From the IMG/VR virus record IMGVR_UViG_3300023179_006747, positions 112 through 64,111 of that record: a stretch of DNA of 64,000 nt; one strand, 5' to 3'. This stretch comes from a virus (taxonomy: Duplodnaviria; Caudoviricetes). The stretch's first letter is position 1; every line of letters begins with the position of its first letter. The position numbers and the translations under genes are program-made. The notes beneath the pieces are model-generated. The model searched no databases, was not told the origin of the DNA, and worked only from the letters and a program-made list of their open reading frames with translations. Below, piece by piece: positions 6,434 to 40,135 of this stretch.

Positions 6434-7416
6434 TTCTTTATATTTGGATCTGCTAGATCTGGATTGTGTTGAGCTTTGGTTCCTCGTTTGAAATTCTTAT
6501 GTAAATTTTCATATATTACTTTAAATGTGCCTAATGGTTTTTTAGTGATATCTTGAATTTTTTGTTCTAATTTTATATCTTGTTGATTTTCTACTTTTTT
6601 AATAATTGAATTATAAGCTATAACTAAACATACTGCTAATGGATCAAAAACAATAACAATTAATATAATGAATATTCTAACTGCTGTTTCTATTTTTAAT
6701 CCAAATGCATCTGCTACAAATTTAAATGTGCCAATTTCACCTTTTGTATTATCACTTTCAAGTTTCATTATTTCTTGACTATTCTCTAGGCTTTGTTTTT
6801 CTAAATTTTGAAGATCAGAAGTTACTGTAGATATTTGAGAAAATAAATTATTAATATTACTTTGAGATCCTTCAACTATCTTATTTTTGCTTTCTACTAA
6901 TTTAATATCTGTTACTTTTTCAGTTTTAGCAGAACTAAAGAATCCTCCACCAGTAGTTTTAGTAGTAGTAACATCTTGTTTAACAGCATTATCTAAAGAT
7001 ATTTGATATGTTTTTTGTAATTCTACAAGATCTTTGAGTTTATTTTTATTGAAATCTATTTGTGAAATATAAAAATTTTGTTGAGATTTTAAACTTTGTA
7101 TTTTATTTAAATTTAAAGAATATTGAGAAAAATTACGTTGAAAAGCATCAGAGAGAAAACCAAAGATACCAAGGCTAGTTATGCACATAAGCAGTATAGT
7201 AGCAGACAGCATATATTTTTTAAGTAAATCATGTATTACTGACCAATATCTATAAAGATAACTTGCACTAACTAATTTAGCTATTTCTAGACTTCCAGCC
7301 ATTATTCCAACGCCCCAAAAACTAGCTGCAAAAAGCAGAGCTATTCCTTTAACTGAAAAAAATGCAGCGCAAGAAGCTAATAAGAAGGCTGATAATCCAA
7401 GTATATATTTAAACAT
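6430..7416 (-). CDS. Membrane protein with 3 N-terminal TMs, a coiled coil and a C-terminal TM
   Basis: Hydrophobic segments, LEIAKLV and IVIVFDPLAV motifs; GTGTAA motif upstream. Confidence 0.75.
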   Translation of the reverse strand: MFKYILGLSAFLLASCAAFFSVKGIALLFAASFWGVGIMAGSLEIAKLVSASYLYRYWSVIHDLLKKYMLSATILLMCITSLGIFGFLSDAFQRNFSQYSLNLNKIQSLKSQQNFYISQIDFNKNKLKDLVELQKTYQISLDNAVKQDVTTTKTTGGGFFSSAKTEKVTDIKLVESKNKIVEGSQSNINNLFSQISTVTSDLQNLEKQSLENSQEIMKLESDNTKGEIGTFKFVADAFGLKIETAVRIFIILIVIVFDPLAVCLVIAYNSIIKKVENQQDIKLEQKIQDITKKPLGTFKVIYENLHKNFKRGTKAQHNPDLADPNIKN

Positions 7417-7458
7417 AATATTTAATCTAAATTACACTTTTAAAATGTAATAATATTA

Positions 7459-7974
7459 GTGATAGTATCTGAAAGAGATATTGATTTCTTTGCTAAAAAA
7501 TTGGACTTATCTCCAGAAAAAGCATTTTTACTAATCCAAGATCCAGATTGTTTGCCAGAAATATTAAATAAAATTTCAGAAGAAGATATAGATGGGATTG
7601 TTGATATAAGTTTTCCAGTATTTGCAGAAATAACTATTATAAAATATAGTAAAGATTTAAAATATTCATTTGAAGAAAAAGAATATGTCTCAGAAGCAGT
7701 TGGTTTAAAATTCTATGATTTAATTGGAGAGCCTATTTTTAAAAAATCTATACTAGAATTCAAACATGACGAAGATACAGCTAAATCACTTTTAGTATTT
7801 TTAGGATTTTTTTATAAAAACTTACATAAAGCAAGAAGAGCTTATCCATCAGAAAATATATATTATAATATAGCAAAAAATGGATTTGAAAATTCAGACA
7901 AAATACATATATCAGAACATCTTAAAGACTGGATTAAAATATTAAGAATAATACATAATGAAGTTTGGTTTTAA
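7459..7974 (+). CDS. Hypothetical protein
   Basis: 171-aa ORF with phage-like composition; no motif recognised. Confidence 0.65.
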   Translation: MIVSERDIDFFAKKLDLSPEKAFLLIQDPDCLPEILNKISEEDIDGIVDISFPVFAEITIIKYSKDLKYSFEEKEYVSEAVGLKFYDLIGEPIFKKSILEFKHDEDTAKSLLVFLGFFYKNLHKARRAYPSENIYYNIAKNGFENSDKIHISEHLKDWIKILRIIHNEVWF

Positions 7975-7984
7975 TACGATATCC

Positions 7985-8303
7985 TAATTATTTAACTTTT
8001 CTTTGATATCCAAAAGGGCTTTACCTCCAGATTTTAAATATCTGAAGTTGGGTATTATCAATCCAACTTTTCTTTTGACTCCAAATTTCACCACGATCTC
8101 AGTGATGAATGGGCCATCGCACTTACGGATCAGAGGTAGCTTCGATCACTACATTCTGCGATGCCTATAGCTACATTCCCCTTATTAGCCATATAATGTA
8201 CATATAAAGGTTTTAATAGTCGTCAGCCCTTGGGACGTTGCTATCTCAAGGATTGATAGTTGATTTTTTGACATCAACAAACTGCTCTAATTGGGAACTA
8301 TGT
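7985..8303 (-). ncRNA. Candidate structured non-coding RNA of unknown family
   Basis: No long ORF, GC-enriched, at least seven stems. Several stems contain G-U pairs only on the minus strand. It sits directly downstream of TTGACA-N17-TATTAT. Boundaries are approximate. Confidence 0.55.
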
Positions 8304-8309
8304 TAATTT

Positions 8310-8352
8310 ATAATATATTAAGTTTGAGGTTTTGTCAAATTTTATTTATAAT
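8310..8352. promoter_or_regulatory. Overlapping divergent sigma70 promoters
   Basis: Minus strand: TTGACA(8338-8333)-N17-TATTAT(8315-8310). Plus strand: TTGAGG(8324-8329)-N17-TATAAT(8347-8352). Confidence 0.75.
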
Positions 8353-8360
8353 CAATATAA

Positions 8361-8570
8361 ATGGAAATTATAAAAAATAAAGCTAGATGGTCAGTTTATG
8401 CAAATAAATGTGTTAAGCATTATAATATCTCTAATGATAATATTTATGATGAACCAGAGCAATATCCATGTATCGCAATACCCCAGTTAATTTCTGATAT
8501 AAATGGATCAAGAGTTAAATTTAATTTTGTTTATAAAAAAGATTGTCAAAAATTATTAAAAGCTTTATAA
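8361..8570 (+). CDS. Hypothetical protein
   Basis: 69-aa ORF starting 8 nt after TATAAT. Confidence 0.65.
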   Translation: MEIIKNKARWSVYANKCVKHYNISNDNIYDEPEQYPCIAIPQLISDINGSRVKFNFVYKKDCQKLLKAL

Positions 8571-8599
8571 TGTGTAAGATTAGTTAGTTCTTTCACATT

Positions 8600-8987
8600 G
8601 GGCGCGTACTGGTTTCGATTTTAAGAAAATAAATTGAAATGCAAGTGGAGGTTGAATCGAGGACTCCTTAAAAAGTTTCAATTATATTAACTGCCAAAAC
8701 AGCTAAATATAAAGGTCATATCTCTGCTAGAGTTTCTCTAGTTGAGATGACCGCTTCTGTAGCCTAAGTTCTACAGCGTGACTACCTTGACACATCTATT
8801 GGATAGTTGCGTAATTAGATGTCTTATTATTTATAGTTTTTTTGTTCTATCAGTATTAAGTATTAAAAATAAAATCGCTAAGTATGTTTGTTCTTTATCT
8901 ATACAAAGCTAAAAATAAAAAGAACTAAACTTGTAGTATTTTAATTTAGATTTTTAAAAGACGAGGATTCAACTTCCTCCGCGTCCA
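8600..8987 (+). ncRNA. ssrA: tmRNA
   Basis: 5' end GGGCGCGTACTGGTTTCGA. Acceptor stem GGGCGCG/CGCGTCC with a G3-U pair and discriminator A8987. T-arm GAGGA-TTCAACT-TCCTC. Helix 2 GCAAGT/ACTTGT. pk1 GGAG/CTCC plus TTGAA/TTCAA. TAACT-GCC resume site and tag ORF 8693-8767 AKTAKYKGHISARVSLVEMTASVA*. Confidence 0.95.
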
Positions 8988-9055
8988 AGTAAACGAATCT
9001 CTTCGTCTCCATTTTAATATTAGAGATTTATCTTAGGATAAGATATAATCTTTAT

Positions 9056-9607
9056 ATGTCAATATCAACAGTAAAAGTAAAATGCGCGTATTGTGGAAAT
9101 GAATTTCAAAAATTAAAATCAGAATACAATAGAAGAATTAAAAAGAAAAATGCAGGTTTTTTCTGCAATTTAAAATGTTCTGGAAATTATTTTGATACTA
9201 AACATTTAGCTAAATATAGAAAAATCTATAGTAAAAATATTAAAAATTATTCATCAAATCGCTTAGATGAATATAGCTCATTAAAATACTATTTAAATAA
9301 ATCTTTATATAGAAGTAAAAAGAAAGGTGTGAAATCTGATTTAACTTTAGAATATTTAAAAGAACTTTGGAATAAACAAAATGGAATCTGCCCATATACA
9401 GGAATTAAAATGGAACTTCCGAGAACAACAGCTGACGAAGATATCAAAAAAACTCCAACAAAAGCAAGTTTAGATCAAATTGTACCATCAAAAGGTTATA
9501 TAAAAGGAAATGTAGAATTTGTTTGTTATAGTGTGAATGTAGCAAAAAATGATTTTACTAAAGATCAAATGATAGATTTTATAAATCAAATTAAAAATAA
9601 ACTATAG
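9056..9607 (+). CDS. HNH-like (beta-beta-alpha-Me) homing endonuclease with N-terminal zinc ribbon
   Basis: CAYC...FCNLKC, LWNKQNGICPYTG and ASLDQIVPSKGYIKGNVEFVC..VNVAK motifs. Confidence 0.8.
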   Translation: MSISTVKVKCAYCGNEFQKLKSEYNRRIKKKNAGFFCNLKCSGNYFDTKHLAKYRKIYSKNIKNYSSNRLDEYSSLKYYLNKSLYRSKKKGVKSDLTLEYLKELWNKQNGICPYTGIKMELPRTTADEDIKKTPTKASLDQIVPSKGYIKGNVEFVCYSVNVAKNDFTKDQMIDFINQIKNKL

Positions 9608-11178: not shown

Positions 11179-12144
11179 TTGAATATACTTTGGCCAGACA
11201 TACATTTAAATCTTACGAAAAATATAGCAAAAGCTTTTAATAAACTAGGCCATACATTAATACTTCCAAGTTCAGATTATATACCAACAAATTTACCACC
11301 AAAACAATTTAATCAATGGGCGTGGAATACAACTTGGACTCAACAAAAAGCTGATCTTGAATTTCAACATAAAAATGTAAAAGTATTAAATAAATATCAA
11401 ATATTAGACCTTAAACCAGAAATAGTATTTATTACGAGTTTTGAAAGTCAATTTGAGATATTAAATGAAATTTGGCCTCACTTAAAAGAAAAGGGCAAAT
11501 TAGCTTGTTATAGCGGTAATGATTATTGGGATGGTGCTTATCCATTTTATATTATTAAAAATTATCTATGCGCGGATTATGTTGGATATTTTCTTGCTAA
11601 TAAATATAAAGTAAATCACTTGTACTATAGACCTTGGGTTGATTACGATAGGTGTACTTTTGATGGACCAACAGATGGAAATATAGTTGGAATTTATATT
11701 TCAGAATATGAAAAAAATTTTAATCAAGAATACAAAATAAGCAAAAGTCTTCAAGAAGAAACTCCATATATAGATTATCACTATCATACAAATAGTTCTC
11801 AAGAAGAATTAACTAAAAGCTTAAAATCAAGTATTGCAACTCAACATATTAAACATCTCGAAGGATATGGAATATCAGTAATTGAAAGTATGGCTTGCGG
11901 AAGACCAGTTCTTATGCATCGTCAAATGGCTAAAAATAAAAGTTTAATGCAGTGGAGTATTGAAAATACAACAGCCTTATTCTTTGAAAACAATTATGAA
12001 TATATCGCAAAATTAAAAGCATTATACGAAAGCAAAGATTATAGATATTATTTACAAAATATGACAGCTAGTGTTATTCGCCAGATTATAGATAATGACA
12101 GAGAAACAGAAAAGCTTGGACATTTCCTTAATAATCTAGTATAA
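11179..12144 (+). CDS. GT-B (GT4-like) glycosyltransferase
   Basis: EGYGISVIESMACGRPV motif; promoter TTGATT-N16-TATAAT at 11145-11172. Confidence 0.8.
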   Translation: MNILWPDIHLNLTKNIAKAFNKLGHTLILPSSDYIPTNLPPKQFNQWAWNTTWTQQKADLEFQHKNVKVLNKYQILDLKPEIVFITSFESQFEILNEIWPHLKEKGKLACYSGNDYWDGAYPFYIIKNYLCADYVGYFLANKYKVNHLYYRPWVDYDRCTFDGPTDGNIVGIYISEYEKNFNQEYKISKSLQEETPYIDYHYHTNSSQEELTKSLKSSIATQHIKHLEGYGISVIESMACGRPVLMHRQMAKNKSLMQWSIENTTALFFENNYEYIAKLKALYESKDYRYYLQNMTASVIRQIIDNDRETEKLGHFLNNLV

Positions 12145-12153
12145 TTTTAAATA

Positions 12154-12990
12154 GTGAAAATCTGGCTCTGTGGTATTACCCAAAACGAGAAGCAGAATAT
12201 TGACGATATGACTAAAGACATATATCAATATTTTGATGGGTTAATTTTTGTAGATGGTGGATCAACAGATGGTACGCTAGAAGTATTAAATGCAAGAAAA
12301 GGCCAAGGAAAGATTATAAATCGAGAATGGTCAAATGACCATGATCTTCAAATGAACGGCTTCCTAAGAGCAAATGTAATGCAAAATGGCGATTGGTTCA
12401 TTATTCGCGATAGCTGTGAAAGATTAGATATAGATTGGGTGAAGAATTTGCGTAATTTTATAGAAAATTTCTTAGAAAAGAATAAATTAAATAGCTGCGT
12501 TGACAGACAAAAAGCTTTTCTTGTTAAATATTTTGATGATATGATATTTCAAGGAAGCCCACATTGGGGTTTAAGTGGTATGAGAGGCGGATATATTGAT
12601 CTTTATGAATACTATGCAAAAAATCAAAAGATGTTTGCATGGGAAGAAAGGCCATCTCAAAGAAAGCACTATATTGATAGTGATATGAAGTATTACTTTA
12701 TTTATGGAAGATCAAATCATTGCGTTCTTCATTATTATGATAATGGCAAAACTCCAGAAAAATATCAACAACAAGAAAGTATAAGGCAAGCATTTAGATC
12801 TTTTTGTGAGACTTTAGGGATAAAATTCAATTTAGAGTCATTAAAAGAATACTGGCGAAATAATACTATCAATGATAATATGAAATTCTTTATTAATAAT
12901 GAAAGACTCATAAGAAGATTTTATAGATTAAATATTTTAAATCATTCATTAGAGCAAATTGATTCATCAGAGGAATGGAGACTAGAATGA
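12154..12990 (+). CDS. GT2-like glycosyltransferase
   Basis: NE..NI, VDGGSTDGTLEVL and DSCE motifs. Confidence 0.8.
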   Translation: MKIWLCGITQNEKQNIDDMTKDIYQYFDGLIFVDGGSTDGTLEVLNARKGQGKIINREWSNDHDLQMNGFLRANVMQNGDWFIIRDSCERLDIDWVKNLRNFIENFLEKNKLNSCVDRQKAFLVKYFDDMIFQGSPHWGLSGMRGGYIDLYEYYAKNQKMFAWEERPSQRKHYIDSDMKYYFIYGRSNHCVLHYYDNGKTPEKYQQQESIRQAFRSFCETLGIKFNLESLKEYWRNNTINDNMKFFINNERLIRRFYRLNILNHSLEQIDSSEEWRLE

Positions 12991-13886
12991 AATTAATAGA
13001 TTGCTTCATGTATTTTAATGAAAAAGATATTGCATATCTTAGAATAAAAGAATTATATGATATTGTTGATTACTTTGTCATCAATGAAGCCACAAAGACT
13101 CATCAAGGCCAAGATAAAGAATTATCCTTTTGGAAAGATGATAGACTACAAGAATTCAAAGATAAGATCATCTACACACCAATAGAACTAGATGGAAGAT
13201 TTGACGTTTTAATGCCAAAGTTTTTTCCAGATGCAAAGATTGGCGCAAAAGAGCACGAACAAAGAATAAGACTTTTTGAACAAATTGAACCATTAAACTT
13301 AGACAATTTAGATACAATAATGATTTCAGATTGCGATGAAATTCCTAATAAAAATATATTTCAAGATATGATTAAGTATCCAATCGTTGCGCTTAATCAA
13401 ATGTTTTTTGTTCATTACATTAATGTTTATACAAATAAAAATGTTACTGGAACAGTAGCTTGTAAATACGAAGGATTAAAATATTTAAATACACTATGTT
13501 TTGGAATGGGTCTTCAAATTTTAAGAAGAGATAAAGATTTTATGCCAAGAATAGAAAATGGTGGATGGCACTATTCTTATATGGGTGGAGCAAAATCAGT
13601 TAGTCAAAAAGTAGTATCAACTTATGATGGCAATTTGAACTCTCAATGGAAAACAGAAGCAGCTGCCCAAAAATTAATTGATGAAAGTATTAAAAATAAA
13701 CAAAGCCCTTTTTCTCAAGAGCCAATTTCTATTTTAGATTTTAAATGTGCTACAATAGCTGACTTAAACTTCATAACAGCAAAAGAAGGTGGGTGGCAGA
13801 AATCATCAGCAAGATGCCAATTGCATCCAAAAATAATAGAATTAGACTTTAATAGAGATTTTGAAAATTTAAAATATAATAAATAA
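12987..13886 (+). CDS. GT17 (MGAT3-like beta-1,4-GlcNAc transferase) family glycosyltransferase
   Basis: IDCFMYFNE...VDYFVINEATKTHQG, ISDCDEIP and GGWHYSYMG motifs; ATGA coupling. Confidence 0.85.
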   Translation: MKLIDCFMYFNEKDIAYLRIKELYDIVDYFVINEATKTHQGQDKELSFWKDDRLQEFKDKIIYTPIELDGRFDVLMPKFFPDAKIGAKEHEQRIRLFEQIEPLNLDNLDTIMISDCDEIPNKNIFQDMIKYPIVALNQMFFVHYINVYTNKNVTGTVACKYEGLKYLNTLCFGMGLQILRRDKDFMPRIENGGWHYSYMGGAKSVSQKVVSTYDGNLNSQWKTEAAAQKLIDESIKNKQSPFSQEPISILDFKCATIADLNFITAKEGGWQKSSARCQLHPKIIELDFNRDFENLKYNK

Positions 13887-13887
13887 C

Positions 13888-14586
13888 ATGAATAATCCTT
13901 TTGATTTTTTTGATAGAATATATTGCATTAATCTTCTAGAAAGAGTAGATAAATGGCAACAATGTTTGGAAGAATTTAAAAAACTTGGAATAGAAAATAA
14001 AGTGATTAGATTTAATGCAATTAAATTTATTGGTGAATTGCCAGAACAACTTAGATGGATTAATATTAGAGCTTGTGGATGTACAGCATCTCATAGAGAA
14101 ATTATAAAAATTTGTCATAATGAAAATGTCAAAAATGTATTAGTTTTAGAAGATGATGTAGAATTCCATAATGATCCAATCAAAAATTTAAGTTTATCAA
14201 TAAATGAATTAAAAGATAAAAGTTGGGATATATTATATCTTGGAATGAATGTGACAGATGAAAAATTTAAACAACCTTTAGAAAGAATTAGCCCTAATTT
14301 ACTAAGAATTAAAAGTGCATTGACTACGCATGCTATAGCATATAATAATTCTTCTTTTAAACCAATTTTAGAATATATACCAGAAGGATTAGAAATAATT
14401 AATTGGCAAGCAAGAAATGAATCTTATGATGGATTTTTTATGAGGCATTTTTTAAGCCAAAATAAAGCATTTTGCACGAATGAATATTTGGCTACTCAAA
14501 GAGATAGTTTTTCAGACATTAATCTAGGGAATGCAACTTACGGGAAAGCTATTATGGAAAATTTTTATAAAATGAGACCATTATGA
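13888..14586 (+). CDS. GT25 family glycosyltransferase
   Basis: YCINL..R.DKW, GCTASH, LVLEDDV, WDILYLG and TTHAIAY motifs. Confidence 0.85.
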   Translation: MNNPFDFFDRIYCINLLERVDKWQQCLEEFKKLGIENKVIRFNAIKFIGELPEQLRWINIRACGCTASHREIIKICHNENVKNVLVLEDDVEFHNDPIKNLSLSINELKDKSWDILYLGMNVTDEKFKQPLERISPNLLRIKSALTTHAIAYNNSSFKPILEYIPEGLEIINWQARNESYDGFFMRHFLSQNKAFCTNEYLATQRDSFSDINLGNATYGKAIMENFYKMRPL

Positions 14587-15392
14587 TAACATTTTTTCAA
14601 TTAGGCAAATATGGAGCAATTGGTAATCAACTTTTTCAATATGCTACATTATATTCAATAGGTAAAATAAATAATTATACAATTAAAATTCCAAAAACTG
14701 AAGAACATTTTGATGAAGGAACAAACAGAATCCAACATTATTTTTTAAATTGTTTTGATAACATATTTGCAGAAATATTAACGGAAGAAGATAAAAAATT
14801 AATAAAATATAAAGCGCACGATGAAAATGCTATATCTTATAATCAAAATATGTTTAATATACCAGACTTTACAACATTAGAAGGATATTTTCAATCATAT
14901 AAATATTTTATTGGTTTTGAACAAGATTTAAAAAAGCAATTTCAATTTAAAAAATCTATAATAAACTCTATAAATGCAAAGTATAATATAAATTATAAAA
15001 ATTTTTCTTCTGTACATTTAAGATATGGAGATTACGCGCATAGGCAAAATTATCATCCAATTATGGATAAAGATTACTATAAAAAAGCCTTTGAATTGCT
15101 AGACTCCTCAAACTATCTCGTATTTTCAGACAGCATAGAATATGCGAAAGTAATCTTTAATGATTTTAAAAATATTAATTTTATATTTGTAGAAAATAAT
15201 CACGCATTTGAAGATATGTATCTTATGTCGGTATGTAAAGATAATATTTTAGCTAATAGCAGTTTTTCTTGGTGGGCGGCATGGCTTAATGAAAATAATA
15301 AAGTAATAGCTCCAAAAAATTGGCTTGGCCCTGCTTATTATGGAAGATGGAATATAGAAGACTTAATACCAAAAGAATGGATTATCATATGA
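14583..15392 (+). CDS. GT11 alpha-1,2-fucosyltransferase-like protein
   Basis: GAIGNQLFQYA, GYFQSYKYF, VHLRYGDY and ANSSFSWWAAWL motifs. Confidence 0.9.
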   Translation: MITFFQLGKYGAIGNQLFQYATLYSIGKINNYTIKIPKTEEHFDEGTNRIQHYFLNCFDNIFAEILTEEDKKLIKYKAHDENAISYNQNMFNIPDFTTLEGYFQSYKYFIGFEQDLKKQFQFKKSIINSINAKYNINYKNFSSVHLRYGDYAHRQNYHPIMDKDYYKKAFELLDSSNYLVFSDSIEYAKVIFNDFKNINFIFVENNHAFEDMYLMSVCKDNILANSSFSWWAAWLNENNKVIAPKNWLGPAYYGRWNIEDLIPKEWIII

Positions 15393-16246
15393 ATAAAAAA
15401 ATATTTAACTTATTAGACAATAACTTCGCGCACGACAAATATGTTGTAGCAGGGATAGATTCAAAATATATCGAATGGGACAGATCATTAAAAGATTTAG
15501 AAAATCCATTCTTTTATTCGCATATAAGAATGCGCGATATTATTAGTAAAAATACAGACAAAGAAAAATCTTACGGACTTATTGTTGAATCAAGAGCAAT
15601 AGAAGGACAAATGTATGATTTTATTGAACCAATACTTCATAGATTTAATAAAGTATTCACTCATAATTCTGCATTTTTAAAAAAATATGAAAATTGTAAG
15701 TGGATTCCAGGAGGAGGAATATGGGTCGAAGGTAGAGAAGGCGCGCCACATGGAGAAGGACAAATGAAGATTTTTGATAAAACTAAATTATGCTCAATGG
15801 TATCATCAAACAAACAAATGTGTTATTTACATCTAGTAAGATTACAAATTATGGATTATTTAAAAGACAACAATAAGATAGATAAATTTTTTGGTGGAGG
15901 TGGCCCAGGAGACGCGGGATGGCTTCCAATTTTTAGGACATTAAAAGATTATATGTTTTCTATAGTAATAGAAAATTTTGTAGACGATTTATATTTTACA
16001 GAAAAAATATTAAATTGTTTTGCTACAGGAGTTATACCAATATATCTCGGAGCAAAAAACATACATACAGTTTTTAATAAAGATGGAATAATGCAATTTG
16101 ATTCACTTGAAAAATTAAATGAAATTTTAAATAAAATCTCTCCAGAAGAATATTACTCTAGAATAAATGCAGTTAAAGAAAATTATGAAAAATGCTTACA
16201 ATTTAAATCAATTGAAGATTATATTTATCTAAATTATTTATCATGA
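15389..16246 (+). CDS. GT10 alpha-1,3/4-fucosyltransferase-like protein
   Basis: YMFSIVIEN...YFTEKILNCFATGVIPIYLGA fucosyltransferase motif. Confidence 0.85.
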   Translation: MNKKIFNLLDNNFAHDKYVVAGIDSKYIEWDRSLKDLENPFFYSHIRMRDIISKNTDKEKSYGLIVESRAIEGQMYDFIEPILHRFNKVFTHNSAFLKKYENCKWIPGGGIWVEGREGAPHGEGQMKIFDKTKLCSMVSSNKQMCYLHLVRLQIMDYLKDNNKIDKFFGGGGPGDAGWLPIFRTLKDYMFSIVIENFVDDLYFTEKILNCFATGVIPIYLGAKNIHTVFNKDGIMQFDSLEKLNEILNKISPEEYYSRINAVKENYEKCLQFKSIEDYIYLNYLS

Positions 16247-17109
16247 AAAACATTTTAATACTAGGAAAAGGTTATATAGGATCAGGTTTATTTGAGTATA
16301 TAAAAATAAAAGAAGATATTTCTGCAGAAATTAAATCAAAAAGTGAACTTAATTATCTAGATTATTCTATATTAGACAATTATATATTTAATGCAAAAGC
16401 GAAAGGGCTAGATTACATAATAAATTGCGTCGGATACACTGGGAGGCCTAATGTTGAAGGTTGTGAATATGACAAAGAGACATGCTGGAAATATAATGTA
16501 AATATTCCAATACTTTTTACTGAAATAGCTAATCATTACGATATACCAATTATTCACGTAAGCAGTGGATGTATATATACTGGATATGAGAAAGATTATA
16601 GCGAAGAAGATGAACCTAATTTTGGTTTATATAATAATAGTAGTTTTTATAGTAAAACAAAACATGCTTGCGAAATTTCTTTAAAAAATACTAATAGTTA
16701 TATATTTAGGATAAGAATGCCGTTCTCCTATAAATCTTCTAATAGAAATTATATTAATAAAATATTACAATATGATAATTTAATAAGTTATAAAAATAGC
16801 TTAACATGCGTTGAGGATTTAAATGAATTCGTATATAAATTTATAAATTTAAAAGATAAACCTAAATTTGGAATATTTAATGTTTTGAATTCTGGATCAG
16901 CCACGGCAAAAGATGTTGTTAATATTTTACAAAAATATAAATTAGAAAACAAAAACTGGAAATTTTTAGATCAAAAAGAAATGAATTTTAAAACGCCAAG
17001 AAGTAATTGTGTTTTGTCTGTACAGAAAATTGAAAAATTAAAATTAGAATTACCTAACGTAATAATTAGTTTAGAAAATAGTATTAAAAATTTTCATAAT
17101 AATTTATGA
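16243..17109 (+). CDS. NDP-4-keto-6-deoxysugar 3,5-epimerase/4-reductase (NRS/ER, RmlD-like SDR)
   Basis: GKGYIG, GYTGRPNVEGCE, SSGCIY, SFYSKTK and RIRMP motifs. Confidence 0.85.
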   Translation: MKNILILGKGYIGSGLFEYIKIKEDISAEIKSKSELNYLDYSILDNYIFNAKAKGLDYIINCVGYTGRPNVEGCEYDKETCWKYNVNIPILFTEIANHYDIPIIHVSSGCIYTGYEKDYSEEDEPNFGLYNNSSFYSKTKHACEISLKNTNSYIFRIRMPFSYKSSNRNYINKILQYDNLISYKNSLTCVEDLNEFVYKFINLKDKPKFGIFNVLNSGSATAKDVVNILQKYKLENKNWKFLDQKEMNFKTPRSNCVLSVQKIEKLKLELPNVIISLENSIKNFHNNL

Positions 17110-17867
17110 ATAATAAGATTATTTATCTTTTAAGAGATTCACCATTAGATTTAAAACTTTTTGATAAAAGTATAGAACTTTTAAAAATTAATTTTTTACC
17201 TACAAATAATTATCCAATAGTAATTTTTCATGAAAATATTCCAATAGATATTTTTGAAAATATCCAAAACAAACATCAAATTAAATTCAATATACAAAAA
17301 ATAAACTTTGAAATACCTAAATTTTTAGATGAACAAAAAGTTCCCGCAGAAGTCATGACGAAATCAATCGGATATAGACATATGTGCAGATTTTATGCTG
17401 GAGAAATGTATTTTCAAGAAATACTTAAAGATACAAATTATTATTTAAGACTAGATAATGACTCTTTTTTCACTGAACCCATGCAATATGATTTATTTAA
17501 GCATATGGAAGATAATAATTATATCTATGGATATAATGCTACTCTAGGAGATAATCCGCAAGTTACAGTAGGTCTTTTAGAAGCATGCCAAGTATATAGC
17601 CAAACAAGAAAAGTTATAAAAAATATTAACGATATACCATTTCCTCAAGTATATTATACAAATTTTGAAATTGCAAAATTTAATTGGTTTTTAACTCCAG
17701 AATATTTAGATTTCTATAATTTTATAGATATGTTAGGAGGAATTTACCAATACAGATGGGGAGACCATATAATTAAATTTTTAGGCTTATCAATGCTTTT
17801 AGAAGATAAATATAAGCATCATTTTAAAAATTTACCATATGTGCATGGCAATTTTTTTAACTATTAA
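17106..17867 (+). CDS. GT15 (Kre2/Mnt1-like alpha-1,2-mannosyltransferase) family protein
   Basis: GYRHMCRF, YYLRLDND, YYTNFEI and GGIYQYRWGD motifs. Confidence 0.85.
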   Translation: MNNKIIYLLRDSPLDLKLFDKSIELLKINFLPTNNYPIVIFHENIPIDIFENIQNKHQIKFNIQKINFEIPKFLDEQKVPAEVMTKSIGYRHMCRFYAGEMYFQEILKDTNYYLRLDNDSFFTEPMQYDLFKHMEDNNYIYGYNATLGDNPQVTVGLLEACQVYSQTRKVIKNINDIPFPQVYYTNFEIAKFNWFLTPEYLDFYNFIDMLGGIYQYRWGDHIIKFLGLSMLLEDKYKHHFKNLPYVHGNFFNY

Positions 17868-18736
17868 TGAATGTTATTTTATTTAATTTTGGTAAAAACC
17901 ATTTATATTTCCAAGATTGTATAAATCAGATTCTTAATTATAATCACGATATAAAAATATATTTTATTGGAAATGAAAATCAATTTATAAATGGCGCAAA
18001 TTTTATAAACATTAATGAATTCAATAATCAAGATCTTATAAAAGAATTTAAAAATATTTCATTTTATGAAGATGATGGAAATCCATTATGGAGAGCATCA
18101 ATGGCTAGATTTTTTTATATTGAATCTTTTATTAAACAAAATAATCTTGTAGATGTATTTCATTTTGATAATGACGTTATGATATATGAAAATTTTAATA
18201 AAATTTTAAATAGTAAAAATGCTACAGATGAAAATATTATTACTCCAACGAATGAATTTAATTTAACCTGTGGAATGATGTATATTAAAAATGATAATTC
18301 TATTTCAAAATTAAACGAAAAACTTTTCGAAAAATTAAAACTTGGCGTGGGCGGTATATACAACAACTATCCAAAAAGAGGTTCGAGTTTAGATCCATTT
18401 ATGGTTAATGAAATGACCATACTTAAAATTATTCAAGAAGAAAATAAAAACTTATTATCTTTATTTCCTATACTACCCACTGATTTAAATTTTAATCAAT
18501 ACGGAATTTGTTTTGATCCTTCTTCTTGGGGTCAATGTATTGGAGGAACAAATTGTGGACACGGGCCAGGTTGGGCTGGAGAACATCATTATATTGGTAG
18601 AGAAATATTAAAAAATAAATATAAAATATTATTTGAAAATAAAAAACCAGAAATATTAGATTTAAATATAAATATTAAATATCCTTTATTCAATCTGCAT
18701 ATACATTCTAAAAATTTAAATATATTTTTAAGTTAG
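17867..18736 (+). CDS. Putative GT-A glycosyltransferase
   Basis: RFFYIE, HFDNDV (DxD), NEM, FDP and NLHIHSK motifs; cluster context. Confidence 0.6.
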   Translation: MNVILFNFGKNHLYFQDCINQILNYNHDIKIYFIGNENQFINGANFININEFNNQDLIKEFKNISFYEDDGNPLWRASMARFFYIESFIKQNNLVDVFHFDNDVMIYENFNKILNSKNATDENIITPTNEFNLTCGMMYIKNDNSISKLNEKLFEKLKLGVGGIYNNYPKRGSSLDPFMVNEMTILKIIQEENKNLLSLFPILPTDLNFNQYGICFDPSSWGQCIGGTNCGHGPGWAGEHHYIGREILKNKYKILFENKKPEILDLNINIKYPLFNLHIHSKNLNIFLS

Positions 18737-18773
18737 AATTTAATTTTAAAATCTATATAATATTAAGATCAAA

Positions 18774-19370
18774 ATGAAAAATTTTCCTAAACCATATTCA
18801 AATGAAGGAGAAATGCTTCCGTATGAACGATTTAAACTATTTAATTGGATATATGACGCGAATCCTAAGGCTATAATAGAAATTGGATCTGGAGTTGGTC
18901 ATGGTTCTACTTACTATATGGCAGAAGCATTAAGGCAAAGAGGCGAAAAAGGCATAATTTATAGTTGCGATCCAAAAAGATCAATTTACCAAGATTTACT
19001 AAATGATTATCCAAGTATTAAATACTATCCAATCAAATCTTTTGAACTTATACAAAACTTAATATTAAATAAAATTGAAATAGATTATATATTTTTTGAT
19101 GGACCAGAGATTCCAGACCTTGCATTAGAAGATATTAAAACTCTTGAACAATATATTAAATCTGGTACATATTTTAGCATGCACGACTGGTGTACGGAAC
19201 CTAGAAAATATGATAATCATATATCAATTAAATCATTAAAAATAAAACCATATTTACAAAATTCAAATAAATGGGAAAAGATAGAGGAACTGTCAGGATT
19301 ACAAAAGAACAGTAATTTTGATGATATGCCGTATGATTCTGTTGGATTATGTTTATATAGATTTAAATAA
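18774..19370 (+). CDS. Class I SAM-dependent methyltransferase (probable sugar O-methyltransferase)
   Basis: IIEIGSGVG, IFFDG and MHD motifs. Confidence 0.8.
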   Translation: MKNFPKPYSNEGEMLPYERFKLFNWIYDANPKAIIEIGSGVGHGSTYYMAEALRQRGEKGIIYSCDPKRSIYQDLLNDYPSIKYYPIKSFELIQNLILNKIEIDYIFFDGPEIPDLALEDIKTLEQYIKSGTYFSMHDWCTEPRKYDNHISIKSLKIKPYLQNSNKWEKIEELSGLQKNSNFDDMPYDSVGLCLYRFK

Positions 19371-20251
19371 TGGAACTAATTTGCGGAGATAAATTTCAAC
19401 AGTTGGCAGATATATCAATATTGATTGATAATGAAGATAATTACAGATCAGGAATTATACAAAATCAATTAAAAAATATAAATACAAATCTACATATATT
19501 CAATAATGATAATAAAAATTATATTCCAGATAGCATAAAATATGCAAAAAAAATCTTTGTATATACAGATATTTTAAATTTTTTCTTTAAAAATATTCTT
19601 CCTTTTATACAAACAAAATTTATTTTAATAAGTCATAACAGCGATTTAGGGGTATCCTCTGAATATGAAAGATTTTTAAATTCAGATAAGATTATAAAAT
19701 GGTATTGTCAAAACGCCGCATTTAATCATGAAAAGCTTATTCCAATACCTATAGGAATCGCGAATAAGCAATGGGAACATGGAAATGAAGAAATTTTTAA
19801 AAAAAATTATAATGATTTTAAAGATAAAAATAAAGCGTTTGGATGTTTTAATATAACTACAAATAGTTCATTTAGAACGCGAATTTGGGAAATTTGTAGT
19901 CAAAGTAAAATATGTGATATGTACTCAAAATTAGATTTTCAAACTTTTGTCAAAATTATGTCTAAATATAAATATACGCTTTGCCCAATAGGAAATCCAG
20001 TCGCAGGATCAGCAGGAGATAATCATAAAGTATATGAATCATTATATGTAAATAGTATACCTATAGTTTTTGAGAATCAAAAAATAATTTATGATAATAT
20101 ATATAAATATTTGCCAGTAATATTTGCGCAAGATGTTAATATCCTGTCAGATGAAATTAAATTAGAAGAAGAATTCTTAAAAATAAAAGAAAAGTCTAAA
20201 GAAAAAATTGATTTCAATTATTGGAAAAATATAATAAATAATAACTTATAA
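19370..20251 (+). CDS. Exostosin/GT47-like glycosyltransferase
   Basis: ISHNSD, PIPIGI and YKYTLCPIGN...DNHKVYESLY..SIPIV motifs. Confidence 0.65.
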   Translation: MELICGDKFQQLADISILIDNEDNYRSGIIQNQLKNINTNLHIFNNDNKNYIPDSIKYAKKIFVYTDILNFFFKNILPFIQTKFILISHNSDLGVSSEYERFLNSDKIIKWYCQNAAFNHEKLIPIPIGIANKQWEHGNEEIFKKNYNDFKDKNKAFGCFNITTNSSFRTRIWEICSQSKICDMYSKLDFQTFVKIMSKYKYTLCPIGNPVAGSAGDNHKVYESLYVNSIPIVFENQKIIYDNIYKYLPVIFAQDVNILSDEIKLEEEFLKIKEKSKEKIDFNYWKNIINNNL

Positions 20252-20255
20252 ATTT

Positions 20256-20561
20256 ATGGTAACGATAAATTACAAAGGCAGGACCGCAAATCATTTTATA
20301 CAGCATATTGTTGGGCATTTTCTTGCTAGGAAATATAATTTAAAGTTGACACAAGAGTCTCCAATTAATAATCCAACTATAAAATTTAATGATATAAATA
20401 ATAGCCAAATAGGGCGAAATAGGATTATTGTTGATGATACCAACTGGCTGGATATAGTTTTTAATAATTTTAAATATGATTCACCATCTTTTTATTTAGA
20501 TGGATTTTTTAATAATAGAAAATTTTTTGAATTTTTTGAAGAAGATATCAAAAACATATGA
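20256..20561 (+). CDS. GT11-like fucosyltransferase, N-terminal fragment
   Basis: YKGRTANHFIQ resembles GRLGNQMFQ; LDGFF motif. Out of frame with the next ORF. Confidence 0.6.
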   Translation: MVTINYKGRTANHFIQHIVGHFLARKYNLKLTQESPINNPTIKFNDINNSQIGRNRIIVDDTNWLDIVFNNFKYDSPSFYLDGFFNNRKFFEFFEEDIKNI

Positions 20562-21025
20562 TTATACAATATGATCATTCAATAAATCAAAATGACGTTA
20601 TAGTTCATTATAGAATTGGAGATCTGACGCAAATACCTAGATGTATTCTTCCATTAGAATATTATTGTGAAGCTTTAGAGTCTATACAATTTAATCAAGG
20701 CTATATTACTTCAGACACACTAGAGCATGAATTATGTCAAAAATTAATAAAAAAATATAATTTAATTCCACTTGCTTTGAGTCCTTCGGATACAATTGCC
20801 TATTGCAAAAATTTTAATAAAATTATCCTTTCAGAAGGAGGCTTTTCTTGGTCGATTGGCTTTCTAAGTAAAGCTAAAGAAATTATCTGTAATCAAAGAG
20901 AGTTGATTTGGCATGGGGATATATTTTTTGAAAAATGGAAAAAATTAAGATGGGATTATTCACCAGATGCAATTTACGATAAAGTTCAATTAAAAGAATA
21001 TAAACCAATAAAATTAAATGACTAA
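20558..21025 (+). CDS. GT11-like fucosyltransferase, C-terminal fragment
   Basis: VHYRIGD, LPLEYY, ITSD and SEGGFSWSIGFL motifs. Confidence 0.65.
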   Translation: MIIQYDHSINQNDVIVHYRIGDLTQIPRCILPLEYYCEALESIQFNQGYITSDTLEHELCQKLIKKYNLIPLALSPSDTIAYCKNFNKIILSEGGFSWSIGFLSKAKEIICNQRELIWHGDIFFEKWKKLRWDYSPDAIYDKVQLKEYKPIKLND

Positions 21026-21431
21026 TGTAATACTAGGCAAAAATACAGTTATTTCAAACTATACAAATCTATATGGATGTAAGTTAGGAGATGAAGTATT
21101 TATTGGCCCATTTGTAGAAATTCAAAAAAATTCATTTATTGGCGATAAAACTAGAATTAGTAGTCATTCTTTTATTTGCGAAGGAGTTGAGATAGGAATA
21201 AATTGCTTTATTGGACATGGAGTAATGTTTACCAATGATAAATTTACTGAAAATAAAAATGATTGGATTTTAAGAAAAACTAAAATTGGCAATAACGTGA
21301 GGATAGGAAGTAATTCTACAATTTTACCTGTAAATATCGGAGATAATGTAGTCATTGGAGCAGGATCAGTAGTTACAAAAGATATTCCATCAAATACAAT
21401 TGTTTATGGTAATCCAGCGAGAATTAAATAA
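21018..21431 (+). CDS. Hexapeptide-repeat sugar N-acetyltransferase (WbpD/WlbB-like)
   Basis: Left-handed beta-helix repeats; FIGHGVMFTND, IGAGSVVTKD and GNPAR motifs. Confidence 0.88.
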   Translation: MTNVILGKNTVISNYTNLYGCKLGDEVFIGPFVEIQKNSFIGDKTRISSHSFICEGVEIGINCFIGHGVMFTNDKFTENKNDWILRKTKIGNNVRIGSNSTILPVNIGDNVVIGAGSVVTKDIPSNTIVYGNPARIK

Positions 21432-22303
21432 TGAAAAAAATAGGATTAATAGGATTTGGATATTGGGGTAAAATAATTTATAAGAATTTAAAAGAATTGG
21501 GTTATTCAATTACTATAACTGATAAATTTTCTATTGATAAAAGTTTAATAAAAAATGATGATAAGATAGTTGATTCATATATGGAAATTAAAGATGTAGA
21601 TAAAGTTTTTGTTGTTACTCCTTGTGAATCTCATGAAAAAATAGTGTCCTATTTCCTAAATAAGAAAATAGATGTATTTTGCGAAAAACCGCTAACTTTA
21701 AATTTTGATCAATCTAAGAATTTATTTAATATTGCTCGTAAAAATAATGCAAAATTATTTGTTGATTGGATATTTATATTTAATGATGCAATTAATTACA
21801 TTAAACACTTATTAGAAGCAAATACTCATGGTAAACTATTAAATATATCTATGAGGCGATTAAATAAAGGGCCAATTAGAAACGATGTAAATGCAAGATA
21901 TGATCTGACGTCGCATGATTTATCAATTTTAATTTATTTAATAGATATAGAGATTAAAAGAAATTTTTTTTATGACTATCGTAAATTATCAACTTCTTTT
22001 AAAGAAGATAGTTGCATAGGAGTTTTAGAATTTAAAAACAATATAACATGCACAATTGAATCCAGCTGGGAACATCCAATAAAAGACAGACAATGCATAT
22101 TTGAATTTGAAAATGGTATTTTAATTTGGGACGATATAAGTCAAACAATAAAAGTTAATAACATTGAAATAAACTTTCCGAAAACAGAATCTCCACTGAA
22201 AAAATCATTGAAAACTTTTATAAATTCTACTTTTGACACCAATCAGATAAAACGGATAACACTTGAAGTCGCTAAAATTTTAGAAAAAAAATATGAAAAT
22301 TAA
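21431..22303 (+). CDS. Gfo/Idh/MocA oxidoreductase (WbpB/GnnA-like)
   Basis: IGFGYWG, CEKP and DLTSHD motifs. Confidence 0.88.
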   Translation: MKKIGLIGFGYWGKIIYKNLKELGYSITITDKFSIDKSLIKNDDKIVDSYMEIKDVDKVFVVTPCESHEKIVSYFLNKKIDVFCEKPLTLNFDQSKNLFNIARKNNAKLFVDWIFIFNDAINYIKHLLEANTHGKLLNISMRRLNKGPIRNDVNARYDLTSHDLSILIYLIDIEIKRNFFYDYRKLSTSFKEDSCIGVLEFKNNITCTIESSWEHPIKDRQCIFEFENGILIWDDISQTIKVNNIEINFPKTESPLKKSLKTFINSTFDTNQIKRITLEVAKILEKKYEN

Positions 22304-23411
22304 ATTTAACGACTTAAATGCTCAATGGAAAATAATAAAAGAGTCTTGCGAAAAAGATATAAATCTATTATTTCAAAATTCAGATTTTATCTTAGGAGAA
22401 AAAGTATTAGACTTTGAAAGTAATTTTTCTAAATTTTGTAATGTAAAATATTCAATAGGAGTTTCTTCAGGCACAGATGCCATAAAATTAGCTGGGTTAT
22501 CATTAATCGAAGATACTTTATCAAAAAATATTTTGATATTTATTCCAGTTAATACATTTATTGCGACATATATTGGCTTAAAAGATGCTTTTCCAAATGC
22601 AAAATTTATTTTAATAGATTGCGACGATTTTTATCAAATAGATACAAATATTTTAGAAGAACAAGTCTTAAAAAATCGAAAAGATTTTAATCATTGCATC
22701 ATTGCTCCTGTTCATCTTTATGGATATACGGCGAATATGAGTAAAATAAAACAAATATCTAAAAAAAATAATTGTTTTATATTAGAAGATTCATCTCAAG
22801 CCCATGGCGCAATTGATGATGAAAATAATTTAGCTGGATCAACGGGAGATGTGTCAGCGTTTTCTTTATATCCTGGCAAAAATTTAGGCGCAGCAGGAGA
22901 CGCGGGCATAATCACTACAAATAATTTAAAAATTTTTGAAAAAATTAAATTACTTAGAAATTACGGATCAGTAAAAAAATATAGTCACGAAATCTTTGGA
23001 TTTAATTATAGATTAGATACAATGCAAGCCATTATTTTAAATCAAAAATTAAAGTTTTTAAATGAATGGAATTCAAAAAGAAGATTGATCATAAATGAGA
23101 TTTGTCTGAATGTAAGTAATCAAAAAATTATTATGCCGCAGACGCCAAATTATTGCAAAATACCAGCACATCATATTTTTCCAGTAAGAGTAAAAGACAG
23201 AGAAAATTTTATTAATTATTTAAATAATAATTTAATTGAGAACGGAATTCATTATCCTGTCCCACTAAATAAACTAGACTTTATAAAAGCAGATTTTATA
23301 TCCAATAATAAAAGCAATATTTTTTGCGATGAATTAGTCAGTTTACCAATACATCCATTTATTTCCCATCTAGAAATAGAAAAAATTATTAGTATTTTAC
23401 AAAAATATTAA
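22293..23411 (+). CDS. DegT/DnrJ/EryC1/StrS aminotransferase (WbpE/GnnB-like)
   Basis: SSGTDA, PVHLYG, EDSSQAHGA, SLYPGKNLGAAGDAG (PLP Lys) and IHYP motifs. Confidence 0.92.
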   Translation: MKIKFNDLNAQWKIIKESCEKDINLLFQNSDFILGEKVLDFESNFSKFCNVKYSIGVSSGTDAIKLAGLSLIEDTLSKNILIFIPVNTFIATYIGLKDAFPNAKFILIDCDDFYQIDTNILEEQVLKNRKDFNHCIIAPVHLYGYTANMSKIKQISKKNNCFILEDSSQAHGAIDDENNLAGSTGDVSAFSLYPGKNLGAAGDAGIITTNNLKIFEKIKLLRNYGSVKKYSHEIFGFNYRLDTMQAIILNQKLKFLNEWNSKRRLIINEICLNVSNQKIIMPQTPNYCKIPAHHIFPVRVKDRENFINYLNNNLIENGIHYPVPLNKLDFIKADFISNNKSNIFCDELVSLPIHPFISHLEIEKIISILQKY

Positions 23412-23422
23412 TAACATATATT

Positions 23423-23928
23423 ATGAGCGACTATTTTAGTCATCAACAATATCTTTTAAAAGAATTAAACTCTTTAAATAATAATTCTATTGTTTTAGAA
23501 TTAGGGATTGGCGAAGGAAGTTCTTCTTTAATGTATGATTTTTGCAAAAATAATCCATACTCAAAAGTATATGCTTTTGAATCCGATCAAATTTGGCTAG
23601 ATAAAATTAAACCTAAATATAGTTTAGACAATTATATTATAGAGTATATTGATGATTGGAATAATATAAATAAATATATTAATTATAAAAAAATTGATTT
23701 AGCCTTCATTGATCAAGCTCCATGGGAAGCAAGAGTAGCTACTATTAATTTATTAAAAAATAATACTAATATTTTTGTTGTTCATGATTATGATTATTAT
23801 AATATAGGCTATCCAAGCCTTAGAGTTAATAATCAAGAATCTTGGTGGGGCAAAATTATTCTAAAGAATTTATTCTTGAAGATAATTACGAACTGTTACC
23901 ACCAACTTTAGTTATGAGAAAAAAATAA
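23423..23928 (+). CDS. SAM-dependent methyltransferase, apparently frameshifted near 23847-23855
   Basis: VLELGIGEGSS, FIDQAP and VVHD motifs. The track ORF stops at 23911; a -1 frame continuation NYSKEFILEDNYELLPPTLVMRKK ends at 23928. Confidence 0.7.
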
Positions 23929-23940
23929 AATTATTCAATA

Positions 23941-24729: not shown

Positions 24730-24767
24730 TTTTATTTATTAAAATGATATAATAAAAAAAGATAAAA

Positions 24768-40121: not shown

Positions 40122-40135
40122 TATATCATAAATAA

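Follow-up and report, generated by a model that had tools for sequence, protein, structure and literature searches.

The DNA analysed here, a stretch of 64,000 nucleotides (nt) that we call the window, covers nearly all of IMGVR_UViG_3300023179_006747, a linear virus record from IMG/VR with a length of 64,111 b and an estimated completeness of 42%. An open reading frame at 7459-7974 (ORF171) and a one-piece transfer-messenger RNA (tmRNA) gene at 8600-8988 on the plus strand, the sole Rfam family over threshold in the window, flank a region at 7987-8303 on the minus strand that is very probably a real, stand-alone gene for a non-coding RNA of a new family. An earlier note, made from the letters alone, had proposed a structured RNA of about 320 nt at this place, transcribed from its own minus-strand promoter and divergent from the tmRNA gene. 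The conserved promoter boxes, the point at which conservation starts and strong covariation all bear out this proposal. The gene and its promoter are laid out as follows.

7987-8303, minus strand: RNA gene, about 315 nt, both ends predicted from conservation
8333-8338, minus strand: -35 box TTGACA, followed by AA, from promoter scan and conservation
8310-8315, minus strand: -10 box TATTAT, from promoter scan and conservation; the 17-nt spacer at 8316-8332 is variable

Promoter, ends and strand of the RNA gene

The promoter, TTGACA-N17-TATTAT at 8338-8310 on the minus strand, had been described as near-consensus; it matches at 11 of 12 positions and is the best of 18 promoter-like sites in 7400-9100. 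Among the relatives described below, a TTGACA(A/T)A box with a TAnnAT box 17 nt further on is kept in all 51 upstream regions examined from subgroups 1-3, and the spacer and the 7 nt that follow the -10 box vary freely. Near-perfect conservation starts at ACAUAG (8303-8298, 51 of 51 regions), which is the predicted 5' end, and subgroup 4 has the same promoter layout and the same 5' start. The 3' end was set where conservation stops, past the second copy of a motif described below. As the earlier note had stated, the region is enriched in G+C, with 39.5-41% at 8000-8299 vs 21-27% on either side, and the tmRNA gene shows a like contrast.

The description of the region as free of ORFs is correct in one sense and not in another: no ORF is conserved in the RNA, where the longest stop-free stretch changes frame and place among 79 unique copies, but short ORFs of 31-55 amino acids (aa) are present on both strands. 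An ORF at 8003-8170 on the plus strand is open in 36 of 57 subgroup 1 copies, and variable sites have no codon periodicity (21/18/25 and 15/15/15). The RNA is placed on the minus strand because of the promoter and the G-U counts. Within the conserved structure there are 244 G-U cells when the alignment is read on the minus strand vs 49 on the plus strand, about a fivefold excess, and 93.0% vs 87.9% of cells are paired. The argument that G-U asymmetry favors a minus-strand RNA over a DNA cruciform thereby holds. Folding of the single sequence, which had been suggested as a test for each strand, does not discriminate between them (z = -1.93 for the minus strand, z = -2.36 for the plus strand).

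Contigs from freshwater RNA libraries cover parts of 7985-8343 in 3 of 4 runs, drawn from four different studies, at a depth of 4-29. Flanking ORFs are without coverage in these contigs; the flanks of relatives are too diverged to place.

A conserved fold with two pseudoknots

The alignments yield 13 helices backed by covariation, two of which are long-range pseudoknots (PK1 and PK2). A multi-branch core is closed by a long-range helix (LR), with hairpins Pa and P2 near the 5' end of the RNA and hairpin I after the core. Inside the core lie P3 around hairpin C, hairpin D, helix E around hairpin F, and hairpin G.

8284-8298, minus strand: hairpin Pa (8295-8298/8284-8287), loop CCAAUUA; 100% paired, change on both sides in 3 of 4 pairs
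8259-8278, minus strand: hairpin P2 (8273-8278/8259-8264); 82.6% paired with subgroup 2 misaligned here, change on both sides in 2 pairs
8250-8258 with 8056-8064, minus strand: long-range helix LR; change on both sides in 7 of 9 pairs, by eye also present in subgroups 2, 3 and 4
8215-8245, minus strand: P3 (8241-8245/8215-8219) and hairpin C (8234-8237/8221-8224)
8225-8231 (loop of C) with 8014-8020, beyond LR, minus strand: pseudoknot PK1; 99.5% paired in the 53-sequence set
8179-8210, minus strand: hairpin D (8204-8210/8179-8185); change on both sides in 6 of 7 pairs
8170-8174 with 8136-8140 (loop of hairpin F), minus strand: pseudoknot PK2; 97.7% paired
8112-8165, minus strand: helix E (8157-8165/8112-8121, one bulge) and hairpin F (8144-8147/8128-8131), enclosing the 3' strand of PK2
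8088-8108, minus strand: hairpin G (8102-8108/8088-8094); 95.3% paired, change on both sides in 7 of 7 pairs
8025-8047, minus strand: hairpin I (8040-8047/8025-8032); 83% and 91% paired in its two helix parts, change on both sides in 3 pairs

The main covariation set comprises 53 sequences that are less than 97% identical, compared with 500 shuffles. Paired cells amount to 93.0% vs 84.3% in the shuffles, and 42 of 75 pairs are changed on both sides vs 31.9; none of the 500 shuffles reaches either value. The covariation score is 0.294 vs 0.156 when shuffled, and at most 0.089 with the partners slid. Five helices examined in 24 sequences of the four subgroups give the same picture (95.0% vs 75.1% paired, score 0.590 vs 0.223). 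Covariation among homologues, by which the earlier note had proposed that the RNA be judged, is therefore strong. Over the four subgroups P3 is 100% paired with change on both sides in 3 of 4 pairs, PK1 is 98.2% paired (5 of 7 pairs) and PK2 95.8% (2 of 5 pairs). PK1 occurs as nine different strand pairs, all of them complementary apart from a mismatch of the outermost pair in two. The 16-nt loop of hairpin D is conserved in subgroups 1 and 2 only, and subgroup 4 has a plain hairpin at this place.

Eight stems had been listed from the single sequence. All exist as complementary segments, and half of them survive comparison with homologues: 8259-64/8273-78 (P2), 8115-21/8157-63 (E), 8087-94/8102-09 (G) and 8025-32/8040-47 (I) have covariation. 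The other four (8228-35/8244-51, 8172-77/8195-200, the inner GTAGT/GCTAC hairpin and 8045-51/8063-69) are jointly 80.6% paired vs 80.3% in shuffles, with a covariation score of 0.118 vs 0.119. As a description of the fold, the list also missed one long-range helix and the two pseudoknots. An end-to-end helix predicted by RNAalifold was rejected, having no covariation and being broken in subgroup 2, as was, as part of the fold, the terminator-like hairpin at 8044-8070, which is one of these four stems and is lost in three loci (L053, L064 and L127); the overlapping LR is kept.

Read on the plus strand, 8044-8070 is the complement of part of the RNA gene; it folds into a hairpin that resembles a terminator and includes a run of T, 70 nt past the stop of the ORF at 7459-7974. 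This hairpin may end the ORF171 transcript in subgroup 1 and is not conserved in all members. If it does so, convergent genes could share sequence for different purposes.

Distribution and genomic context of the family

Homologues are found in at least 75 further IMG/VR contigs and at least 50 metagenome stretches, and they fall into four subgroups. A search with ORF171 uncovered 32 related viral loci, 25 of which have the RNA region 3' of the ORF as in the window. The DNA of the RNA region is 88-98% identical in these loci where the ORF171 protein is only 77-92% identical. A pattern made from two invariant blocks matched 69 viral stretches, with the element present in 61, and at least 119 metagenome stretches, with the element in 50 among the matches listed. 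Full-length copies of subgroups 1-3 number at least 128, of which at least 79 are unique. The more divergent subgroup 4 was found by synteny rather than by pattern, in three ORF171 genomes without a blastn match; its copies lie upstream of nrdA and have helices like those of the other subgroups. A pattern for the subgroup 4 motif added 14 members among 95 stretches, and a looser core pattern gave at least 114 stretches, with no new family member in new loci among the matches listed.

A blastn comparison of the region with 50,697 phage records gave no match. Prokaryotes, represented by one genome for each of 185,579 species, were scanned twice; the scans returned 0 and 41 stretches, none of the 41 belonging to the family. 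Since a match in either scan required the type A twin motif, cellular relatives resembling subgroup 4 or without the motif would escape them. Members with other motifs may exist as well, because the family was collected largely by motif patterns. As far as searched, the family occurs only in a single clade of large tailed phages, rich in A+T, that come from lake metagenomes. A literature search found no published description of the RNA. A 2023 catalogue from IMG/VR comprises 10,006 unnamed candidate structured RNAs (PMC10690425) and may already include part of the family.

In subgroups 1 and 2 the RNA gene runs toward ORF171 and away from the tmRNA gene; the two RNA genes are separated by 105-300 nt, an interval that sometimes holds a small ORF. 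In subgroups 3 and 4 the RNA gene precedes nrdA-nrdB in the same orientation, at a distance of about 110-170 nt, and lies 6-10 kb from the tmRNA gene. The association with the tmRNA locus that the earlier note had drawn from the window therefore applies to subgroups 1 and 2 and does not extend to subgroups 3 and 4. The RNA gene and its promoter thus move together, which speaks for a trans-acting RNA rather than one with a fixed cis role or a strict functional link to tmRNA.

Several smaller features accompany the gene in these settings. The ORF between the RNA promoter and the tmRNA promoter of the window (8361-8570, plus strand, 69 aa) has no family match; it encodes 69-83 aa in subgroups 1 and 2 and is missing from L081 and L063, in which just 105-118 nt separate the two RNA genes. 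One locus (L014, 3514-4830) has an insert of about 1.3 kb between ORF171 and the RNA gene. A TACAC(T/C)T sequence recurs just 5' of the -35 box and again 20-40 nt 3' of the RNA, before nrdA (L036, L046, L045 and L058 of subgroup 3; L361 and L363 of subgroup 4), and may be a phage-specific regulatory or promoter element. ORF171 itself has 168 homologues; the 120 matches listed are all at least 74% identical and are unnamed or hypothetical, and the protein has no Atlas look-alike.

Two motif copies that change in concert

The most conserved stretches of the RNA are two blocks with the same motif, with a mean identity of 0.99 vs 0.85 overall.

8066-8082, minus strand: twin motif copy 1 (GGAGUCAAAAGAAAAGU), 17 nt, unpaired in the model, just before the 3' strand of LR
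7995-8011, minus strand: twin motif copy 2 (GGAUAUCAAAGAAAAGU), 17 nt, unpaired in the model, at the 3' end of the RNA

The copies are 71 nt apart, separated by unrelated structured sequence; a 1-nt indel and the first 6 nt distinguish one from the other. Where the motif varies, both copies vary together. Among 79 unique RNA copies, a C/U position reads C in both motif copies in 63 and U in both in 16, and the base preceding GGA reads U and U in 58, G and G in 12, and A and A in 9; neither site is discordant in any copy. In subgroup 4 the changes AA to UU and AA to GG are present in both motif copies, which still differ from each other by 1 nt in length, as in the other subgroups. Concerted change thus affects at least four positions and is seen across all four subgroups. 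Concordance was read from positions that are outside the search patterns or degenerate in them, and hence free to vary. The 32 genomes found through ORF171, a set independent of the patterns, contain 25 copies of subgroups 1-2 and 3 of subgroup 4, all concordant. Scans for mixed-motif forms gave 1 and 21 stretches, and none of these 22 is in the family.

The motif is a polypurine tract in subgroups 1-3, where each copy consists of GGA followed by an A-rich tract with at least three A-R-N triplets. In subgroup 4 the A-rich core is replaced by UUGGG in both copies, and GGA is changed to GAA or AGA in some members. The twin copies cannot pair with each other because they are alike rather than complementary. 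A nucleic acid partner was sought in several places. The complement of the motif is not enriched in the window (29 matches vs 27.7 expected), and a complete phage genome has no reverse and two extra forward copies, compared with 2 and 3 for controls. The subgroup 4 records contain no complement of the motif, and the extra ATTGGGAAG copies in them are coding sequence. Phage tmRNAs have no consistent motif-complementary site, nor is there conserved complementarity between them and the RNA. Partners of the motif within the RNA, as predicted by RNAduplex, differ between subgroups, and none is consistent apart from a 4-bp match of the Pa loop with the U(U/G/A)GG before either copy.

Comparison with known RNA families

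Rfam 15 was searched with the window at the gathering score and, at E values up to 10, with the region itself and a single member from each of the subgroups 2, 3 and 4; no family was assigned to the RNA. The matches were at chance level only (10-21 bits, far under the cut-offs), so the Rfam scan suggested by the earlier note bears out its reading of a possible new class. The tmRNA model (RF00023) and ARAGORN find only 8600-8988 and nothing in 7987-8307. The RNA resembles tmRNA in being a phage-encoded, presumably stable RNA of similar size, rich in pseudoknots, with a sigma-70-type promoter and raised G+C in an A+T-rich genome; unlike tmRNA, it lacks both a tRNA-like end and a tag reading frame, and its 5' and 3' ends are unpaired. 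Bacterial RNase P RNA is likewise a housekeeping-type stable RNA of 300-400 nt with a multi-branch core and long-range pairings, but the RNA described here is without a terminal P1 helix joining the ends, its helices are in another order, and it has no conserved long-range P4. RF00010 has no match in the record, compared with 11 of 14 control genomes that do match, and no RNase P model appears at E up to 10. For signal recognition particle RNA, 6S RNA and group I introns, the free ends and the helix order do not fit.

A group I intron was rejected on the absence of an Rfam match, the gene's own promoter and the lack of a flanking exon reading frame. Riboswitches associated with nrd genes (cobalamin, 2'-deoxyguanosine and others in Rfam) gave no aptamer-model match, and the constant 5'-leader position of a riboswitch is seen only in subgroups 3 and 4 and is absent in 25 of 25 subgroup 1-2 copies. 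Template RNAs of retrons and DRT systems were rejected as well: a PF00078 reverse transcriptase is encoded in 0 of 3 records searched (100%, 87% and 87% complete, one of them 171,916 b) and by none of the window ORFs scanned. The template RNA of DRT2 is likewise structured and about 300 nt long, and its template segment lies between two short, identical sequences. The present RNA differs from these in the absence of a reverse transcriptase from the records searched, in a repeat unit without an open frame, and in being borne by a phage rather than a defence island. The RNA of a type III toxin-antitoxin system is not indicated by two motif copies only, 71 nt apart, and a convergent downstream gene, a judgement made without a dedicated search for tandem repeats.

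GOLLD, ROOL, HEARO, raiA and the other large bacterial and phage RNAs of Rfam 15 have no model match. GOLLD and ROOL are alike in being phage-borne, large and intricately folded and in lying near stable-RNA genes; the present RNA is about half their size or less. GOLLD, ROOL and OLE are described as assembling into RNA-only complexes (10.1101/2024.12.08.627333), and by analogy a self-assembly of the RNA through its twin motif and Pa loop would be conceivable.

Repeated unpaired purine-rich or GGA motifs on a structured RNA, to which the twin motif of subgroups 1-3 may correspond, are a feature of CrcZ, CsrB and RsmZ, which titrate Hfq or CsrA. CrcZ is described as titrating Hfq (PMC4063720), the distal face of which reads ARN repeats (PMC8121710). 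The RNA differs from these in having just two motif copies, a strongly constrained pseudoknotted core and a motif that is altered in subgroup 4. Each motif copy of subgroups 1-3 further resembles the RegB/S1 target of phage T4, an S1-dependent site in which an unpaired GGA is followed directly by an A-rich tract of about 11 nt (PMC1702504). That site is a cleavage signal in mRNA, outside any structured RNA, and subgroup 4 is without the A-rich tract.

Possible function of the twin motif

We tentatively propose that the RNA is a trans-acting scaffold that presents two identical sites to one co-evolving partner, a reading that we regard as plausible though short of an even chance. Host polymerase would transcribe the RNA early from the sigma-70-like promoter, and the RNA would act in trans, as the differing neighbors in the subgroups suggest. 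The folded core, locked by PK1 and PK2, may hold the two motif copies in a fixed geometry in which they could bind two copies, or two subunits, of a single sequence-specific partner. Such a partner, for example a phage protein dimer, would co-evolve with the motif, and the RNA would be the scaffold or the decoy of an RNA-protein particle. The motif changed between close phages whose nrdA is 90-91% identical, and a phage-encoded partner is therefore more likely than a fixed host factor. In another formulation, possible but doubtful, the RNA is the core of a new phage ribonucleoprotein or ribozyme in which two identical recognition strands co-evolve with a single partner. This partner would be a dimeric phage protein or else the hairpin loop at the 5' end of the RNA itself, as a guide that serves both sites in turn or acts between molecules.

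A number of results weigh against the proposed two-site scaffold. The concerted motif changes trace to few events, namely three to four subgroup splits and the C/U site, which could itself be one linked haplotype. From locus L033 onward, the search patterns themselves account for part of the invariance of the motif core. Thermodynamic ensembles leave the motif copies only moderately unpaired (0.63 and 0.53 vs a mean of 0.44), and the 5' strand of P2 can pair with motif copy 2. The CCAA of the Pa loop pairs with U(U/G/A)GG before either copy, with 98.1% and 95.8% paired and one covarying column. The position ahead of nrdA in subgroups 3 and 4 is the one that a leader of nrdAB would have. The flanking ORF171 gives no lead to a partner, as it has no Pfam or PHROG match and a poor AlphaFold model (pLDDT 53), and its divergence does not follow the motif type. 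No intrinsic terminator is evident 3' of the RNA. The support for transcription from the RNA-library contigs is weak: these have neither strand nor ends and DNA carry-over is possible, so they are no proof of transcription, and their depth of 4-29 at the RNA gene compares with hundreds to thousands for tmRNA. One contig extends into the promoter and two extend beyond the 3' end.

The pairing of the Pa loop is also what a ribozyme or self-processing RNA would use, if the motif copies were reaction or docking sites read in turn by the loop as a guide, or if the RNA were a conformer switch. A group I intron reads both of its splice sites with one guide, and the large pseudoknotted fold with invariant unpaired joining segments would suit such an RNA. 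The loop sequence CCAA/CCUA complements U(U/A)GG before both copies through one covarying column (AU 38, UG 8, UA 6). In subgroup 4 the altered core of the motif, (A)AUUGGG, can itself pair with the Pa loop, CCCAAUU. However, the pairing of the loop with the motif flank is just 4 bp long, and its one covarying column has changed only where subgroups split. Nothing in the RNA covaries as a complement with the C/U site of the motif, no Rfam ribozyme model matches, and the RNA-library contigs include no cleaved or joined forms; we consider catalysis or self-processing unlikely. A decoy for a conserved host RNA-binding protein is improbable for other reasons. The GGA and A-rich tract of subgroups 1-3, with three or more A-R-N triplets, would offer ARN repeats to Hfq, a GGA and its A-rich tail to ribosomal protein S1 or the 30S subunit, or GGA to CsrA, and precedents are found in ARN recognition by the distal face of Hfq (PMC8121710), titration of Hfq by CrcZ (PMC4063720) and the S1-dependent RegB target with its unpaired GGA and A-rich tail (PMC1702504). 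The UUGGG core and the GAA and AGA variants of subgroup 4 would be unexpected for one conserved host protein in close phages, and a sponge would need neither so elaborate a core nor be expected to have two sites only.

A cis-acting leader of the ribonucleotide reductase operon, riboswitch-like and detached in some lineages, would account for the location of the RNA ahead of nrdA-nrdB (same strand, some 110-170 nt away) in 5 of 5 subgroup 3 and 3 of 3 subgroup 4 loci examined. We hold it to be improbable as well, given that 25 of 25 ORF171-linked copies of subgroups 1-2 run into a convergent gene from its 3' side and have no gene downstream, that the RNA of these subgroups is conserved at 88-98% vs 77-92% for the flanking protein, and that the RNA has its own promoter everywhere and matches no riboswitch model. 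More remote is a template or primer RNA, in which the repeats let a polymerase jump, as in rolling-circle reverse transcription of the DRT2 type, or in which purine tracts resistant to RNase H prime an origin. If the two direct repeats, 71 nt apart, had to be identical, their concerted change would follow without a preference for any particular sequence, and the motif is polypurine in subgroups 1-3. Against this, none of the 3 records searched encodes a PF00078 reverse transcriptase, the 71-nt unit has stop codons in every frame, the copies differ by the 1-nt indel and the first 6 nt and number only two with none nearby, and the gene has relocated within the genome. The suggestion in the earlier note of a primer RNA at a replication origin finds no support other than the purine-rich twin motif. 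Least probable of all is an element that functions as DNA, its repeats being iterons or operators or its stems being cruciforms, with no role for RNA. Two direct repeats of 17 bp that vary together could well be the sites of a DNA-binding protein that co-evolves with them, but G-U pairs are fivefold commoner on one strand, the promoter is conserved, and compensatory changes maintain 13 helices that include pseudoknots without meaning in duplex DNA.

To our knowledge, large RNAs that combine several pseudoknots with tight sequence constraint are rare, and those with a known role are ribozymes or the cores of RNA-protein machines. With its promoter, 13 covarying helices and four subgroups, the family offers a clean model of such an RNA, in abundant uncultured lake phages that have their own tmRNA and nucleotide-synthesis genes. 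Covariation of identity between repeats is a signal left unscored by structure-based RNA discovery pipelines; scans for base-pair covariation are blind to selection for strand identity. The concerted evolution of the motif also provides a direct experimental handle, in that type A can be compared with type B.

The source phage and neighboring genes

Family searches of the window ORFs indicate the gene set of a large tailed phage, which includes the following.

Structural genes: a 1,917-aa tape measure protein, a tail fiber and minor tail proteins
Replication and recombination genes: DnaE-type polymerase, DnaB helicase, primase and a UvsX/RecA-like recombinase
Nucleotide genes: ThyX, ribonucleotide reductase, dCMP deaminase and an IMPDH/GMP-reductase-like enzyme
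Sugar genes: a long series of glycosyltransferase and sugar-nucleotide genes

No close cultured phage was found, the DnaE-type polymerase being without a relative above 32% identity among 50,697 phage records. The tmRNA gene has its own sigma-70-type promoter at 8543-8571. Genes for tmRNA are uncommon in phages, with 402 reported among 18,146 phage genomes (PMC9004378). The tag encoded by the tmRNA of the window, and by those of L075, L037, L081 and others, is unusual in its 24 residues and SVA end (AKTAKYKGHISARVSLVEMTASVA); the tag of subgroup 2 phages differs and has an LIAA end. A weak second match to the tmRNA model in the complete 171,916-b relative (G004:C1:127684-127759, 12.8 bits, under the cut-off) is probably a tRNA or tRNA-like element. 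Immediately 3' of the tmRNA gene, at 9056-9607 on the plus strand, lies an HNH or endonuclease VII-like gene (PHROG matches of 1e-24 to 1e-13). The sugar genes occupy 11179-26000 and 38205-41287 on the plus strand and comprise glycosyltransferases of families 1, 8, 9, 10, 11, 15, 17 and 25, an unusually long series for a phage, together with a GDP-mannose dehydratase, an RmlD-like protein, a DegT aminotransferase and a hexapeptide transferase.

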